Of a stretch of DNA of 64,000 nt, positions 4,031-58,134 are shown piece after piece. Both the position numbers and the translations under genes were made by a program. The DNA is from Octopus vulgaris (taxonomy: Eukaryota), in contig OX597819.1 of NCBI GenBank assembly GCA_951406725.2, positions 13,144,001-13,208,000 on the forward strand. The letters run 5' to 3'. The notes beneath the pieces were generated by a model. The model saw nothing but the letters and a program-made list of their open reading frames with translations. It had not been told where the DNA came from and made no database searches. Position 1 is the stretch's first letter. Every line of letters begins with the position of its first letter.

Positions 4031-4647
4031 TTACACAAATGCATTATACCCCCCCCCACACACACAAGGAAAACGAAAAAGAAAGAAAAACTAGTAATTT
4101 ATAACATTCTTTTATTATTTGTTTCAGTCATTTGACTGTGGCCATGCTGGAGCACCACCTTTAGTCAACACACACACACACACACACACACACATGATGG
4201 GTTTCTTTCAGTTTCCGTCTACCAAATCCACTCACCAGACATTTTGCCCAAGGTGCCACGCAGTGGGACTGAACCCGGAACCATGTGGTTCGTAAGCAAG
4301 CTACTTACCACACAGCCACTCCTGTGCCCTAATAGTATAATAAAAAATGTTTGAAAAAATGTATTTCGGTAGAGGCATAATCTTTCTAATGCATCTCAGC
4401 TGCAGCAGAAACTGGCAAACGAGTCAGGGAGATGAAAGAATAACCTGATGATAACAAGAACTAAAGAGAGGAGTCAGTTTATTTGTTTATTAGATAACAA
4501 AGAAACGTGACTCTACCAAAACACAACACTCTTTCTTTCTCTTGTTTCAACACACGATTTCAGATAAAAATCTTTTGCTAGAAATTTATAAATATTTAAA
4601 AATTATATATATTATTAGTATCACTATGTATAAAAGAAAATCTTCTT

Positions 4648-7232: not shown

Positions 7233-7627
7233 AGGCACAGGAGTGGCTGTGTGGTAAGTAGCTTGCTAACCAACCACATGGTTCCGGGTTCAGTCCCACT
7301 GCGTGGCATCTTGGGCAAGTGTCTTCTGCTATAGCCCTGGGCCGACCAATGCCTTGTGAGTGGATTTGGTAGACGGAAACTGAAAGAAGCCTGTCGTATA
7401 TATGTATATATATGTATGTGTGTGTGTTTGTGTGTCCCCTAGCATTGCTTGACAACCAATGCTGGTGTGTTTACGTCCCCGTCACTTAGTGGTTCGGCAA
7501 AAGAGACCGATAGAATAAGTACTGGGCTTACGAAGAGTAAGTCCCGGGGTCGATTTGCTCGACTAAAGGCGGTGCTCCAGCATGGCTGCAGTCAAAATGA
7601 CTGAAACAAGTAAAAGAGTAAAGAGTA
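7233..7627 (+). mobile_element. SINE family A, full length
   Basis: ggcacaggagtggctgtgtggtaag ... gtaaaagagtaaagagta. Confidence 0.9.
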
Positions 7628-7837
7628 ATTTATTCTTGACTTTTACTGAGTTTCCATTTCTATGGAAAATTTTTCTTTTAGTAAGCTTATTGGTTGTGAA
7701 CCAAATTTAATTGGTTTAAAAGTGAATAAAATTTATATAAAGGATAACAAAATTAGATTTCAGCATGGAAGGTGTTTATAAGCCATTTAAGAAACACACA
7801 CAAAATCCGTTAGATTCACTTCAACATTTAAATTTAA

Positions 7838-7888
7838 TTTGCTAAAATATTTTCGTCACTTTGAGACCGTGACCTGTTCACTGACAAA
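7838..7888 (-). ncRNA. Minimal type-I hammerhead-like motif, G3-C8 core variant (repeat family F, ~7762-7890)
   Basis: Minus strand reads tttgtca GTGAACA g GTCAC ggtctcaaa GTGAC GAA A atat T T tagcaaa. Stem II is perfect, stem III is the palindrome AATATT, and stem I has one mismatch. Confidence 0.6.
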
Positions 7889-7952
7889 ATTCCGTGCTGT
7901 ATCATGGAATTAGATTGTTTTGTGATTATGATCATGATAATAATAATAATAT

Positions 7953-8141
7953 GCCTGAAATTTGGGGGAGGAGATAGTCAATTACATCGACCCCAGTACT
8001 CACCTGGTACTTATTTTATTGACACTGAAAGGATGAAAGGTAAAATCAACCTTGATGGAATTTGAACTCAGAACATAAAGATGGATGAAATGCTGCTAAC
8101 CACTTTGTTCAGTGTGCTAAGAATTCTGCCAGCTTGCCCCC

Positions 8142-8179
<38 letters not shown>

Positions 8180-8388
8180 CCTTTCTACTATAGGCACAAG
8201 GCCTGGATTTTTGTGGGGAGGGGGACAATCGATCACATTGACACCAGTACTTGACTCGTACTTAATTTATCGACCCACTAAAGGATGAAAATTGACCTCG
8301 GTGGAATTTGAACTCAGAACTTAGCAGCAGACGAAATACCGCTAAGCATTTTGCCTGGCATGCTAATGATTCTGCCAGCTCGCCACCT
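7953..8388 (-). mobile_element. Two SINE family B copies separated and flanked by (AAT)n
   Basis: Copies at ~7953-8142 and ~8180-8388 match the family B body. Confidence 0.8.
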
Positions 8389-25591: not shown

Positions 25592-25931
25592 TAGAAAATA
25601 AAGACTACCATAATATTGCAAGGCATTTCAGTTTTTTGGTGGCAGTCATTTTATCCTCATTGGTGTTACACAATAGTAGGAAGGTAGGTTGATGTTAAAG
25701 TGAAAGGCAACCATACTAATAATAATGTTTCTGTTATTTTCTGCAAATATGAACTGTCACACAGAGAGGCTTCGGTAGGCCTGGGGCTATAGTGGAAGAC
25801 ACTTGACCAAGGTGCTATGTGATGGGATTTGAACCTGAACATATGTGGTTGGGAAACCAACTTCTTAACCACACAACCGTGCCTGCAACTCTGCCCTTTT
25901 AATATCCCACCTTTTAGATCAAACCACCATT

Positions 25932-25981
25932 CTGTCAGCGAACAGGTCGCAGTCTCAAACCGACAAAAATATTTTGGCAAA
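25932..25981 (+). ncRNA. Degenerate second copy of the G3-C8 hammerhead-like motif (family F, ~25932-26110)
   Basis: ctgtca GCGAACA g GTCGC agtctcaaa CCGAC AAA A atat T T tggcaaa. U4 and G12 are mutated. Downstream sequence matches 7762-7840 in reverse. Confidence 0.45.
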
Positions 25982-27099
25982 TTTAAATGTTGAAGTGAAC
26001 CTAACAGTTTTTGTGTTTTTAAATGGCTTATAAACACCTTCCATGCTGCAATTGTTTTTGTTTCAGCACACGATCTCAGATCAGGTCACTTGTTATGCAA
26101 GTACATCTGTGTAGTTTTATTATTTAGTCAAAAATGATTTGCAGTATATTTGGTTTGCTATTTATGCAAATACAACTGTTCTCTGCACATTTGAAAAAAG
26201 ACAGGATGGTCATGGCTTGACAACCCATGCTAGCATGGAAAGTGGACGTTAAACGATGATGATGATATATATACGTATATGTATATTTGTGTGTATGAGT
26301 ATAATCATCATCGTTTTACGTACACTTCCCCTGTTGGCATGGGTTGGACGGTTTGACTGAGGACTGTCAAGCCAGAAGGCTGCACCAGGTTTCTACAGCT
26401 TGATGCCCTTCTTAACGCCAACCACTCCAAGAGTGTAGTAGGTGCTTTTTACATGCTACCAACACGAGAGCCAGTCAGGCAGCACTGGTAACAACTGCAC
26501 TCGAATGGTGCTTTTTACGTGCCACCAGCACATGTATTAAAATTAATCAATTATATACATACATAATATAACCACATAATGATAATATAATTTAGGAAAC
26601 ATCACTCTAATTTGTGATTTTCCAAAGTTATAGACTATAATCATTATTATTATTGTCCACATTTTTCTAATCAAAACAATGCCTATTTGACTTATTAGCC
26701 ATTTGTTATTGGTGGCTGTTTGTGATTTAGCTATGAGTTTTAGTAGGAACACCAACCAGCTGTTTTTGATTTTATTATTAAAATTAATCTATCTTTTGCA
26801 ATTACAAGCCCAAAGGTCTATAAACGACAAGACCATTGCAGCCCCTAATCTTGTACCAGACTCCTAAATAAATGATCACAGATAATCTCAGTTACTTTTC
26901 AGTTAGATTGTTATTCTGTTTTTGATTACCAAATGATTAAAAGTTGATGTGTAACAGTTTTAATGTTATATTACACAAAAGTAGATGTTTTACTCAACTT
27001 GAAGGAGTTGTTCTAGATACATCATCATCATCATCATCATCATTTGTAACTTGTACTTTTCCATCTTTGCATGGGTCTGACAAGTGTATGTCAGGGCAG

Positions 27100-28420: not shown

Positions 28421-28618
28421 TTGCCCCCCCTAGCATTGCTTGACAACCGATGGTGGTGTGTTTACGTCCCCGTCACTTAGCGGTTCGGCAAAAGAGACCG
28501 ATAGAATAAGTACTGGGCTTACAAAGAATAAGTCCCGGTGTCGATTTGCTCGACTAAAGGCGATGCTCCAGCATGGCCGCAGTCAAAATGACTGAAACAA
28601 GTAAAAGAGTAAAGAGTA
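28219..28618 (+). mobile_element. SINE family A, full length
   Basis: Matches the family A consensus. Confidence 0.9.
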
Positions 28619-29509
28619 TGTGGTTGGGAATCCAGCTTCTTAACCACACAATCGTGCCTGCAACTCTGCCCTTTTAATATCCCCCCCTTTTAGATCAAAC
28701 CACCGTTCTGTAGTGGTTCTTGTATTTCATTGAAGTTCTTCCTTCCACAAAATGTCTTTGATTTTATCTTGTTGATGTGATTTTCATTCTCCATATCTTG
28801 GCGTCATTTACCTTACATCACTTCTCTTGTCAACTTTACTATATTTTTCTCCTTTTTATTTTTTCCCTTCCAACATGCAATATGTTGTTTCTTCATCTCT
28901 TTCATTTCAAGGCACCTCAGATAATCATCTTTCATGTGTTGTAAGTAATGTTACAATTGTTTCCATTGTGGCTGTTGTTTATATCACGTCAAGTAAAACC
29001 ACTATATTTGTTGTTCTATTTAGATGTTGTTGTTGTTGTTGTCAAAACATTTCCCATTGGTTTCAGTGGTTATTATATAAATTTACTGTTCCTATTTCAT
29101 CTATGGTGAAGGCCATTGCGGAAGTGATACATTTACAGTGAACTGTGTCTTTGAATTCAGTTTTAGTCATTATCATCTCTATTTCATTTCCACACCTAAT
29201 CCTTCTGGAAAAAAGTCATCTCGCAAAAACATCACAAATTCCCACTTGCTCACCAGTAATGTCTATATGACCCTCCATCTGTTGCTGGTTTGCTTTGATC
29301 AAGAAATTAACTATTTATTGCACTAGTTTTTATTCTTACCACTCTGTCCTAGAATGATCTCATCATCATCATCATCATCGTCATCGTTTAACATCCATTT
29401 CTCCATGCTGGCATGGGTTTGACTGGAACTAACAAGTCACATGATTGTGTTGAGCTTCAATGTCTGTTTTGGCAGGGTTTTCATGGCTGGATGCCCTTCC
29501 TAATACCAA

Positions 29510-31190: not shown

Positions 31191-32403
31191 TGGGGTCATT
31201 CCATAAATAATGCGTTTTTTTTTATTTTTTCAAAATCAAGATAAACAAAGTTTTTTCTTAATCTAACATATACTTTCCTTCATTTTCTACAATGCTCTTC
31301 CATCTCTCTGGTAGATGCACAAGGCCCCTCTTTCAAAATTCACTTATCCATGACAAAAAATACTCCTCCAGTACTGTTATCACCATGTCTACGGAATTCA
31401 TATTTTTTATATTCAAATGATTTTGAAGACTGCAGAATATATGATAATCAAATGGGGCAATGTCCGGCGAATATGGTGGGTGGGGCATCATTTCTCATTC
31501 AAACTACTTCAGCCTTTGGAATGTCATCTTCACTGAAACTAAAGTTAGTCGTTTTTCTTCTAGCACTGACTTAAGCCACTCAAGCTGCTCACAATAGATC
31601 TCCTTTGTTATCATTTGGTTTGGGTTTAAAAATTCAAAATGGACTAAACCTTTCATATCCCACCAAACAGATAACAACACTTTACATGGATTGGGGTGCC
31701 GGTGTTTCTTCTTTCCCTACCCACTATCTTTGGCACTTGACATATTTATTGAAAACCCATTTCCCATCACCAGTCACTATTCTGTCTAAAAAAAGGTTCA
31801 TTTACAAGACATGACAGCAAAGAAGAGCACACATTCACTCTCTGTGCGTGAGTAGACTTGGAAAGTTTGTGAGGAACCCATTGACCCAATTTGCTGACTT
31901 TTCCGATGGCACATAGGTGTTGATGAATGGTTGAATGACCAAATCCAAGCTTCTTTCCTAGTTCCTCAACAGTTACAATGTGATTTTGCTCCACCAGGAT
32001 GTCCTTGTCAAGCTCTCCAGATGTTCCAGGATGAGGCTCATCTTCTAGGCCGTAATTTCCAACTTGGAATTTCTGGAACCACCGCTGACCCTGGTTTATG
32101 CTTATTGTCTGCTCCCCATATACTGCATTAACATTCCTCACACTCTCTATTGCATTGTTGCCTTTATTGAACTCATAAAGCAAAATATGCCGAATATGCT
32201 CCTTTGTCACTTCCATTGTAGCTTTGAAAACAAAACTATTAAAATCGAACTGCACTCTTCAAAACTTGCACCAAGAATAAATACAAGGTAAAATTACTAC
32301 CTGCTTTTATAGCAAGTTGATGATGCAGGTAGTTTATTTCGCCTCCCTCTGACTTTTAGTTCATGCAATTGAAAAAAACTGCATTATTTATGGGATGACT
32401 CAA
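31191..32403 (-). mobile_element. Near full-length dead mariner (DD34D) transposon
   Basis: TIRs tggggtcattccataaataatgcg / gcattatttatgggatgactcaa. Transposase starts at ATG 32216 (MEVTKEHIRHILLYEF) and includes WVPHKL, IVTGD-KW and PYSPDIAP-DY. It is frameshifted, and the HDNA second-Asp region is deleted. Confidence 0.92.
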
Positions 32404-53372: not shown

Positions 53373-53978
53373 CCCTTTCGTTACTGTCTTTATTTTGAGG
53401 TGCTCTGTGTTTCTTTCAATTACTTTAAATATAACTACTGGCACTTGTGCCGGTGTGCAGGTGGCACGTAAAAAGAAACGCGATTTTTTCGTGGCCGTTG
53501 CCAGTACCGCCTGGTGGGCCCTCGTGCCGGTGACAAGTAAAAGCACCCACTACACTATCTGTGTTAGGAAGGGCATCCAGCTGTAGAAAGTCTACCAGAT
53601 CAAGATTGAAGCCTGGTGCAGCCATCTGGTTTGCTAGTCCTTAGTCAAATCGTCCAACCCATGCTAGCATGGAAAGCGGACGTTAAACGATGATGATGAT
53701 GATGAATTTAGTAAAATAACTTAATAATCATTCAGTTATCATCATCATCGTTTAGCGTCCGTTTTCCATGCTAGCATGGGTTGGATGGTTCAACTGGGGT
53801 CTGTGAAGCTGGAAGGCTTCATCAGGCCTAGTCAGATCTGGCAGTGTTTCTACGGCTGGATGCCCTTCCTAACGCCAGTTAGTGTTAGGAATATAAATTG
53901 TGACTATCAAAACTTATGACAACAAAACATTTGTTCTCAGAGCCAGAGCTGGTTTCAGCCGGGTTGGTAACGAAAGGG
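53373..53978 (-). mobile_element. Family H MITE carrying two nested, oppositely oriented family C inserts
   Basis: TTAA|CCCTTTCGTTAC ... GTAACGAAAGGG|TTAA, with inserts at 53438-53704 (+) and 53738-53878 (-). Confidence 0.8.
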
Positions 53979-54747: not shown

Positions 54748-54897
54748 ATAATAACAATAATAATAATAATAATATATAATAACAACAATGATGTGAATAA
54801 TAACTTATCTCAGATTTTTACACATTTACTATTTATTAGTTTTGTTTTGAGGTTTAATGACTGTTATTTTATTTTTATTTTCTTTCTCTAATTTCAG

Positions 54898-55871
54898 GTT
54901 CTTCCGTTGATTTGACACGGGCTTTGTTGTCCATCTACGACAAGTTTTTAAATGTCAATGAAGACGATGTACAACAGCAAACAGAAACCTGTTGCACTGA
55001 CAAAGGCGACCCAGAATCTATTTGCCCAGAACCTGCAATGTACCAAAGTGACCAACAGACCAATCCATCATTACTTTCTTCTTCATCATCATCTTCGCCG
55101 CCGCCGCCGCCGCCAACGTCTTCTCTTGCTGCTGCAGCTGCTGTTGACGAGCAGCAGAATGACAAACCTGATTTCGACCAAACAGATGCAGCAGCTTCTC
55201 ACACGACCAACCTGTGCGCCGGTGCCACACTTGACAATGCTGCCTTGGACAGTCGGAAAAGGCCTTTAAGCATCAGCTCAATGTCATCAGCTTCATCATC
55301 ATCTCTCCCACGACACAGTCGATACAAACGCTTAAACATGACCGACACAGAAATTGTCGTCAATGGAAACAACCAGAATATTGTTTCCGGTCCCACGATT
55401 GTTGTGGATAACACTGACATGGAGTCGGTGGTTAGTTCCGAGGACTTTATAGACACTGTTTCAGTTACTTCATCTTTCGATGGGGCAGTAAGAGGATTTG
55501 AGGAAGATCGGACGTCAGCTTCTGACCAATCAGCAAGTTGTCAGAAGTTGACCATTGACCAGCATGAAGGTATTGAAGAGGAAGAGGATTCTATGACCTC
55601 GAGTAGTTATTCATCCCCGAGTCATGCACAAGATGACAACAGGTTGAAGTATCGGTCAAATGAGAGAGAGAAAAGTTGTTCTCCAGTGCCTACACTCCAT
55701 GAACTGACAGACAATGAATGTAAACAATCTCTTCCTGATGAGGATGGGGAAGAGGTAACAGATATCCATTCCACTTCTCTGTCTCATTATGTTTCTTACA
55801 CTGAAAGAGTGGTTTCCGAAATTGTGGAAACAGAACGGACTTATGTAAAAAGCCTAAAGGAAATCAAAGAG
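54898..55871 (+). CDS. Large coding exon of a Dbl-family RhoGEF, PLEKHG1/2/3-like (disordered N-terminal region plus start of DH domain)
   Basis: 974-nt open exon between a strong acceptor (ttttctttctctaatttcag, AG 54896-97) and donor GAG|GTAAGT (55871/55872). It ends in SYTERVVSEIVETERTYVKSLKEIKE, which matches the DH-domain CR1 helix as I recall it in PLEKHG1/3 (YVDRVVQEILETERTYV). It also has an RPLSISSMSSASSS motif like the PLEKHG1/3 N-terminal RPVS...SSS. It starts in phase 1 and ends in phase 0. No next DH exon was found in the window. Confidence 0.9.
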
Positions 55872-58134
55872 GTAAGTGTCTTAAGAATTCCTTGTATTTT
55901 GCATTAAATCTTTACTACTTTGAGACTTTAGAATATGGTACAAACATTGTCGAACTATATTTTACAGGATCCAAAACTGAAGGGTAACATTCCCAAGTTC
56001 AGGTTTTGATGGCGTCAATTTTACATTTTATCCTTCTGATATTGATTCCATCACCTTGCAGAACTCATTTCAAATTGTCCTAAAGAATGATGCGAGGGTT
56101 GAGTCAAAAAGTAATGCCATTTTGTTTAGGACAAGTATAATTACCAACACAGGAACATGTATCATACATCAAATTGAAGCTGGTCCTCTGTGGATCACAT
56201 CCCTACTTCTCAACATAGTCACCGTTTCTCTCAATAGCAATGTTCTACCTTCGAATGAAAGCATGTATCCCTGCCCTGTAAAATTCTGTTGACTGTTCTT
56301 TGAACCACTTCTTCACTACAGTTTTCACTTCCTCGTCACTGGACTGTTATCGTCACTGGACTATCATCTCTTTGGCTCCATGAAAGAGGGTTTGAAAGGC
56401 AAACATTATTCCAGTGACCAGACTATCTATGAATATTGCTTGCAATCGACTGATATTATATAGAATACAATATGTAATAATAGCACTAACCCTTTTGATA
56501 CCAACCAACCTGCTTGAGATCATTCCAAGTTTAATGATACAAACTTTTTTCTTTAACCTTTTAGCATTCAAACCAGCCATTTCTGGCCAAAATGTTCTTC
56601 CTGTTTTATGTTCAAACTGACCAGTTGCAGCCTTTCACATCTACCCTACAATGTTGGTCTCAGAAATATATAGTCACATAATTAAAATCTCAAGGCTACA
56701 AGATAATGCATGGTTGAAGCTTTACATTTGACAGTATAACCTAAATGTTAAAGAAATAAAGAAATTCTTCATTAATTTCAAAATTAATTGAAACAGAAAT
56801 GTGGTAACAACAGGGTTAAACTGGGGTTAAGGAGCAGGCCCTAAAAGTCATCCATTGCTTTATTTGTGTTTTTACATGTCTTACTTTATAATCTGTGTCT
56901 GTTATTTTCTCACAGAAATAATTAAAGATTATCACCAAAAACAAGTTGCATGCTTTGTCAGTAGAGGGTTACATTCAGAATCCCTTGAGCAAGTGAGGAA
57001 AAGAACTTCTGTGTATTTGCCAAACTCAGCTAAAAACAGCAGTCAATTGACACTGTATCACTGTATCAGTTATAAAATGGGAACCATAGTAGTCATAGAT
57101 AGAACAATGTCAGCCAGTGTTGATAGCCATCTTGTATCTGATTTCATATCTCAAGTCCTTGACCTGTGGCATTTTACTGATTGACCTTACCAGATAGAAC
57201 TGACTAGTTGCCAGTTGGTACCTACACAAAAACAACCACCACCACCACCACTATAGTATCATCATGGTACCAACTTATTCACTAGCTTTGTTCTCTTGTT
57301 GCAAAACACCATATTAATAGCTTCAAAAGATATTTTCATCTGAGACTTAACCAAATAGTTTCTCCTCTATATTTTCGGAATATTATCTTCTCATTTATTT
57401 TTCCCCTAACTAAATATTGGTTTTGATAAAAAGCTGAATATCTCACACTATTTCCCTTACACTTGTCTGGAAGCTGTTTAAAAACAGAATGTAACTAAAA
57501 TCTCTCAATCTTCTCTTCCCGCTAAGAAAGAAAACATCAATTCTCACTTTTAGATTTCACTTCTGATGAAACCTCCCCGCCACCACCACCATCCCAGGCA
57601 TAAACTTGGAGCACCTTACCAACTTCTGGTTACATTCTTTCTTCGTTATTCCAAATTGTTTTCCCCAAGCATCCCCTGGAACACTGCCGTTGTTTATTTT
57701 AGTTACCAATGAACACATGTTCGACAGATGTCAACATTCTGATGCCACACATTCCAAGTCAACTTTTTTTCCTTTACAGAATGTCGTCCTTTCTTTATAT
57801 TCCTTATTGCCAGACTCGAATGTCCTTCCTTCTATTCCTCTTACTGCCACAGCCCACCCTGTCATATAATTTAGATTAGGTTATAGTGTCAACTGCCATT
57901 AGTATTATTACACTTCCCAGGTGTTTCATACTTTTACAGAGAACCTGCCATTGGTATTTTAAGATTCAATAATGATGAAACCAGAGATACTTGTCTAAGG
58001 AATAAATTACAGACTGAGATAAATAACTCCTCTTCCTCATCATCATCATCATCATTTAACATTCATGTTCCATGATGGCATGAGTTGGGCAGTTTCACAG
58101 GGTTCAGTGGATTTGAGGACTATATTGAGCTCCA

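Follow-up and report, generated by a model that had tools for sequence, protein, structure and literature searches.

A G3-C8 hammerhead-type motif in an abundant repeat of Octopus vulgaris, probably derived from Penelope-like elements

Hammerheads related to the octopus motif

In hammerhead ribozymes C3 and G8 are treated as near-invariant, and Lunse reportedly described about 150,000 small variants in 2017. Natural core variants with a U3-A8 pair are known, among others from Schistosoma (Perreault et al. 2011, PMC3088659; PMC4209133). Like them, the octopus repeat family described here carries a compensated 3-8 change in nature, but U3-A8 is reached by two transitions, whereas the G3-C8 pair of the family needs two transversions and inverts the pair. 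The same swapped pair has been made in the laboratory. When all double mutants of a hammerhead were scanned, C3G/G8C stood out by strong positive epistasis (Roberts et al. 2023, PMC9901934), and a G3-C8 variant was stated to be more active with G17 than with C17, the data not being shown in that paper (Kalweit and Hammann 2013, PMC3884650). In these engineered ribozymes the swap rescues activity and more of it is obtained without C17; the family has U17. They are laboratory mutants of tertiary-stabilised ribozymes, whereas the family is natural. By analogy the swap is chemically plausible, because of the positive epistasis in the engineered hammerhead and a partial rescue in an Anolis ribozyme, and its chemistry is unsurprising since it is a known laboratory rescue.

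The minimal hammerheads of Penelope-like elements (PLEs), as described by Cervera and de la Pena (2014, PMC4209133), share many traits with the family: the type I order, an extra nucleotide after A9, a G10.1-C11.1 pair, a palindromic stem III, no evident loop-loop contact, a permitted U17 and mostly solo, dispersed copies. With its U-rich 5′ and AU-rich 3′ flanks the family also fits the consensus published there, and U17 is frequent in the canonical-core PLE motifs of the supplement. Among the cores reported in that study are C3-G8 and U3-A8, whereas the family core is G3-C8, and all nine GUGA occurrences in its supplement file 2 lie outside cores. The family further differs in having G as the extra nucleotide and a longer stem I (7 bp), and no PLE gene was found linked to it. 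PLE minimal hammerheads are reported to have very low activity (PMC4209133), and action as a dimer via stem III or with protein help has been proposed or shown (PMC4209133; PMC6765202; PMC11167929).

In the Anolis Poseidon PLE, PAc, the ribozyme cuts at position 26, and the start of reverse transcription lies at 111–118 nt of the ORF (Frangieh et al. 2024, PMC11167929). By our own arithmetic these points are 85–92 nt apart in PAc; in the octopus copy examined here the 3′ end lies 85 nt past the predicted cut, a likeness that may be coincidence. Both have an optional tail, an AT-rich target with ATT and the motif upstream of the insertion 3′ end. PAc is naturally C3-G8, its G3-C8 form being an engineered partial rescue, and its ORF starts in stem II, whereas the family has only a short candidate ATG frame downstream. 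Non-LTR retrozymes (bioRxiv 10.64898/2026.07.22.740005) resemble the family as non-coding animal repeats with a type I hammerhead and a proposed derivation from PLEs, but form tandem arrays, whereas the two family copies are dispersed single units 18 kb apart.

Penelope families are present in Octopus vulgaris (PMC13282606). Literature searches for the swapped core and for the family motif sequences listed no report of a natural G3-C8 family; the text covered included PMC10085705, PMC12192606 and PMC1636495 and had Lunse 2017 and Arkhipova 2017 outside its range. The surveys consulted for their methods hard-code CUGAnGA (PMC8557442; PMC10085705).

We analysed a window of 64,000 nucleotides of the O. 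vulgaris genome. The reading we favour, and hold to be reasonably probable, is that positions 7760–7903 are a worn copy (copy 1) of an abundant repeat with a family-state G3-C8 hammerhead motif, likely the 5′-truncated 3′ end of a PLE; its source RNA would cut after U17, slowly, and probably as a dimer or with an element protein. The motif is likely a natural ribozyme variant of a Penelope-type element that standard searches would miss.

Anatomy of the motif and chance expectation

Positions 7838–7888 on the minus strand can be read as a type I hammerhead of the minimal kind, its core pair being G3-C8. Its parts are as follows.

7882..7888, minus strand: stem I 5′ strand, pairing at p 0.68–1.0 with the majority letters of the family
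7875..7881, minus strand: core box G3-U4-G5-A6-A7-C8-A9 with the 3-8 pair swapped (G3 = 7881, C8 = 7876, A9 = 7875)
7874, minus strand: extra nucleotide between A9 and G10.1, G here and H in the published PLE minimal hammerhead consensus
7855..7873, minus strand: stem II, 5 bp, with G10.1-C11.1 and a 9-nt loop (strands 7873–7869 and 7859–7855)
7854–7852, minus strand: G12-A13-A14
7851–7846, minus strand: palindrome AAUAUU (A15.1..U16.1), with stem III predicted only between two molecules
7844..7845, minus strand: predicted cut site, after U17 (7845) and before 7844, as placed by hammerhead numbering
7838..7844, minus strand: stem I 3′ strand, with letters in copy 1 that are not those of the majority at 7843 (a mismatch) and 7842 (a wobble)

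The junction elements of copy 1 follow the type I order (stem I, N3UGANN8A box, stem II, GAAA, stem III, UH, stem I), and U4, G5, A6, A9, G12, A13, A14, A15.1, U16.1 and H17 are all in place. So are the traits of PLE minimal hammerheads: the extra nucleotide between 9 and 10.1, the G10.1-C11.1 pair and the palindromic stem III. Stem II has A-U at 7870/7858, where the family has G-C, and stem I contains a C-A mismatch and a U-G wobble adjoining the core. The initial annotation of this DNA had described a G3-C8 hammerhead-type motif with a complete core, a 5-bp stem II and the AAUAUU palindrome, all of which we confirm; it counted one mismatch in stem I, which is the C-A pair, and the wobble next to the core comes in addition.

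The window holds one sister copy and no third.

25930..26082, plus strand: copy 2, a decayed sister with G3 (25938) and C8 (25943) kept

Copies 1 and 2 are 82% identical over 145 columns. Canonical C3 and G8 are absent from both, and Watson-Crick 3-8 pairing is kept. The earlier account of the sister copy left unmentioned that the core is broken by U4C (25939) and G12A (25965). Because of these two changes and a C-C mismatch in stem II, copy 2 is predicted to be catalytically dead. A 24-nt, 92% match to the 3′ extension of the family at 4542–4565 may be a fragment or due to chance.

We searched both strands of the window with a descriptor that allowed any Watson-Crick 3-8 pair and was written after the motif had been seen; copy 1 was the sole match. 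In 3137 shuffled windows, which preserve local dinucleotide content and were searched with any of the four Watson-Crick pairs at 3-8 and with the loop range widened slightly, 133 loose matches occurred and none as good as the motif of copy 1; an earlier shuffle set gave 2 loose matches in 150. These counts speak against the motif being a look-alike that arose by chance because the repeat is AT-rich and has a short hairpin, as do the independent data presented below, which shift all four deviating positions towards better pairing, and the PLE-type context, where such motifs are expected. For a look-alike one can cite the descriptor being post hoc and the many genomic repeat families, one of which could match by chance. 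Rfam also detected no hammerhead among the 150 of 153 window matches listed, nor in a scan of 151 nt around the motif with E up to 10, and copy 1 folds no more stably than its shuffles (z = -0.95). Taken together, we regard a look-alike as highly improbable.

Family state of the core and predicted function

Reads or contigs matched to 7650–7950 at 80% likeness were taken from 4 of 24 public runs, with the small-share runs X18–X22 left out. The four comprise one set of raw RNA reads (X23, 1338 reads) and the DNA-type contig sets X1 (12431), X2 (8893) and X14 (3783 records). One 579-nt contig covering the unique flank occurs in both X1 and X2, which are possibly non-independent, and is missing from X14 and X23. 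Summed depth in X1, which is no copy number, was 1.2–3.3 million over the repeat versus 51 on the unique flank; together with two copies in 64 kb this points to a family of tens of thousands of copies. Similar repeats are known from octopus genomes.

C>G changes at 4% or more were found in none of X1, X2, X14 and X23, therefore C3 is absent at that level. G>C changes, as needed for G8, did not reach 4% anywhere in X23 and X14, and in X1 and X2 they did so at two places each, at positions outside the 40 of 79 rows listed. G3 is family-wide, and at least two of the four runs show the same for C8. At four motif positions the majority letter in X1, X2 and X14 differs from copy 1, with shares of 87–90% at 7870, 89–93% at 7858, 96–99% at 7843 and 57–73% at 7842. 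These letters match the consensus GTCGC/GCGAC and TGTCA/TGACA that the initial annotation had deduced from the two copies. It had staked the ribozyme reading on a consensus that can form stems I and II, and with the majority letters both stems are fully paired. The reading as a G3-C8 hammerhead-type motif is thereby better founded than for a lone candidate copy.

The common variants within the motif in the contig sets lie in loop II (7863, 19–21%; 7865, 8–9%) and at 7842, where pairing is kept as U-A or U-G. Common variants are absent from the 11 core positions, which on its own is not significant (p about 0.4, our estimate), because variants this common occur at only about 6 of the 78 positions outside the motif. 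G12A has a share of 1.4–2.6% in the contig sets but of 18% among the RNA reads, a sign that decayed copies are transcribed. Non-majority letters, which are the letters of the reference itself, make up 10–13% at 7870 and 8–11% at 7858, while most other CpG changes stand at 1–9%; these are shares per position, without linkage. An A-U subfamily at 7870/7858 is possible. The suggestion that the apparent compensation in stem II could be double CpG decay agrees with the data, in that A-U is in the minority and derives from G-C through two transitions of CpG type, and other CpGs of the family decay too. Since the changes are of CpG type and the shares are per position only, the stem II 'compensation' is not countable as covariation.

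In copy 1 as it stands, stem II is predicted to pair at p = 0.5 and stem I at p = 0–0.47. With the majority letters, which repair the stems of copy 1, the hammerhead fold becomes the predicted minimum-energy structure (-14.5 vs -8.6 kcal/mol), and pairing rises to p 0.99–1.0 in stem II and 0.68–1.0 in stem I. The predictions also contain competing pairings. The AAUAUU self-duplex in catalytic register has only -0.2 kcal/mol, and a 10-nt palindrome, A13..U1.1, forms a stronger self-duplex at -3.8 kcal/mol that would occupy A13 and A14. A G3-U17 pair is predicted to lengthen stem I, and the cofold of two copies adopts another arrangement than the stem III dimer, the palindrome being present but weak. 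Based on these models, copy 1 itself is probably weak or dead as a ribozyme.

Transcripts were assessed in the 1338 reads of X23. RNA ends did not pile up at the predicted cut site or at any other place, and first mates were split 680/658 by strand; thus, the reads give no sign of a transcript that is cut or specific to the element. A negative of this kind has also been reported for the active Anolis ribozyme (PMC11167929). A drop in depth near the cut site in the contig runs was considered as a sign of cleavage-defined 5′ ends and rejected, as it coincides with reference mismatches and is absent from the raw reads.

These observations bear on a different account, in which the PLE-derived motif was already silent, or nearly so, in the source elements and its stems persist for protein binding, as pLTR structure or by recent descent. 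The competing pairings and the missing RNA ends at the cut site agree with it, as does the very low activity of minimal PLE hammerheads (PMC4209133). Mutants of the Anolis PLE ribozyme were reported to be without effect on insertion in vitro, and G3-C8 only partly restored its cutting (PMC11167929); uniformity within one repeat family can also stem from shared descent rather than selection. Against a silent motif, however, the majority stems pair fully, and in copy 1 all nine other core positions are on consensus (9/9) with the 3-8 pair kept Watson-Crick. By our reckoning, if two of the 11 core positions changed at random, the changes would fall on 3 and 8 and again leave a Watson-Crick pair in about 1 of 165 cases. 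We therefore consider silence in the source elements unlikely, though it is an account to be reckoned with.

Two further features of the RNA reads were noted. Behind 7889, 113 reads of X23 continue as what is, by eye, the reverse complement of the upstream sequence of the family; they read as an expressed head-to-head pair of copies, which would form double-stranded RNA. X23 also has 23 A>G and 13 T>C places, versus 4 and 3 per contig set, which could be A-to-I editing or differences between loci.

Insertion boundaries and probable Penelope-type ancestry

The boundaries of copy 1 and the 3′ extension of copy 2 are defined as follows.

7760..7903, minus strand: copy 1, a 144-nt insertion, with a depth step and loose ends at 7757 and 7899–7903
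7751..7759, plus strand: left copy of a 9-bp direct repeat, AATTAGATT, likely a target-site duplication
7908..7916, plus strand: right copy of the 9-bp direct repeat, with 4 extra bases (7904–7907) before the family match
26050..26082, plus strand: 3′ extension of at least 33 nt, a candidate PLE 'tail', which copy 2 has and copy 1 lacks

The direct repeat is AT-rich; by chance, a repeat of at least 9 bp was found in 0.5% of 15770 random window pairs and in 1.0% of 1817 AT-rich pairs. A 9-bp hairpin at 7888–7911 spans the upstream junction of copy 1 and uses the extra bases 7904–7907; it could be a miniature 5′ inversion.

In the initial annotation, the 5′ edge of stem I marked the end of the family match for both copies. 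This holds for copy 2, whose match stops there because another repeat adjoins (25842–25935, 94% like 28617–28711, with an overlap of about 6 nt). It does not hold for copy 1, where the match reaches 7903, 15 nt beyond the stem I edge at 7888. Beyond 7903, 222 RNA reads extend with a common sequence (agreement 0.75); the other loose ends at 7899–7903 show low agreement, as expected for unique flanks. On the other side, the loose-end sequence before 7757 (277 RNA reads) matches the 3′ extension of copy 2. The 3′ end of copy 1 lies 85 nt past the predicted cut site. Both copies have an ATG downstream of the motif, at 7786 (minus strand) and 26023 (plus strand), which opens a short Cys-containing frame of 34 aa in copy 2 and could be the start of the element's ORF; the 34-aa frame from 26023 had no usable Atlas match.

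Contigs matched at 80% likeness contained 48 joints between family copies, 15 of which were listed. Opposite strands are joined in 14 of these 15, and 12 of the 14 have one end at 7886–7904, a clustering that the end of the reference match at 7903 may force. Inverted 5′-truncated neighbour copies and an optional tail of 30–40 nt are described as PLE features (Craig 2021, PMC8557442). Copy 1 thus appears to be the 3′ end (a pLTR-type segment) of a PLE or of a non-autonomous derivative. Because no PLE protein is linked, we infer PLE membership of the repeat from its architecture. Pfam searches of 35 of the 86 ORFs listed for the window detected no reverse-transcriptase or GIY-YIG family, and pattern scans for the family found no locus in either metagenome or viral contigs. 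The supplement of Craig 2021 contains consensus sequences of two Octopus Naiad elements. Of five family motifs sought in it, three had 0 matches and the other two matched at 4 places, 3 of which were listed and looked unrelated; line breaks could mask matches.

With no PLE protein linked, the repeat might instead be of another kind, such as a SINE or LINE fragment, that acquired a real hammerhead independently, as in schistosome SINE-like elements and non-LTR retrozymes. A 9-bp duplication fits any target-primed retroelement, and many copies appear to have common short boundaries. Yet the inverted junctions, the optional extension and the minimal dimer-type anatomy are PLE features, and the window copies, being dispersed single units 18 kb apart, are unlike tandem retrozymes. 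We judge such an independent origin to be quite improbable.

For the favoured PLE origin, the following course of events can be proposed. A PLE transcript would have carried the motif near the start point of reverse transcription, and reverse transcription, primed at the target and beginning about 85 nt past the cut site in the downstream direction, would give short inserts when truncated early. Cleavage after U17 would take place when two motifs form stem III together or a protein assists, and the 3-8 pair would be under selection in the source elements. U17 may avoid a G3-C17 trap, since the engineered G3-C8 variant is reported to be more active with G17 than with C17, although canonical-core PLE motifs often have U17 as well.

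A bolder proposal, which we put forward tentatively, is that a working hammerhead family has fixed G3-C8, with U17 avoiding the G3-C17 trap, and now numbers tens of thousands of copies in several animal species related to each other, invisible to CUGAnGA searches; swapped-core ribozymes may then recur uncounted in PLEs, including some described as lacking a ribozyme. If this is true, nature has made a change of two transversions although either one alone abolishes activity, and current counts of retroelement ribozymes are too low. It would also provide a high-copy family for testing whether the 3-8 pair is under selection and what PLE hammerheads do, a role that is disputed.

The window has a GC content of 30–42% per 2-kb bin and is rich in microsatellites and dispersed repeats. 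Positions 7400–7627 hold an abundant dispersed repeat with more than 10 window copies at 75–93% identity, which adjoins TA/TG microsatellites and which we take to be SINE-like; 7951–8290 is a second abundant repeat, often in tandem units with (TAA)n between them. An ORF at 31767–32258 (minus strand) encodes a Mos1-type transposase HTH domain (PF17906, E 2.9e-19) and represents a mariner fragment. The segments 53608–53826 and 26221–26393 belong to a long inverted-repeat family with several copies and a MITE-like shape, whose microRNA-model scores are below the cut-off. The longest non-repetitive-looking frame, of 348 aa, is at 54861–55907 (plus strand); it has a weak terminal RhoGEF match below the cut-off (E 0.0086) and may be an exon of a host gene.
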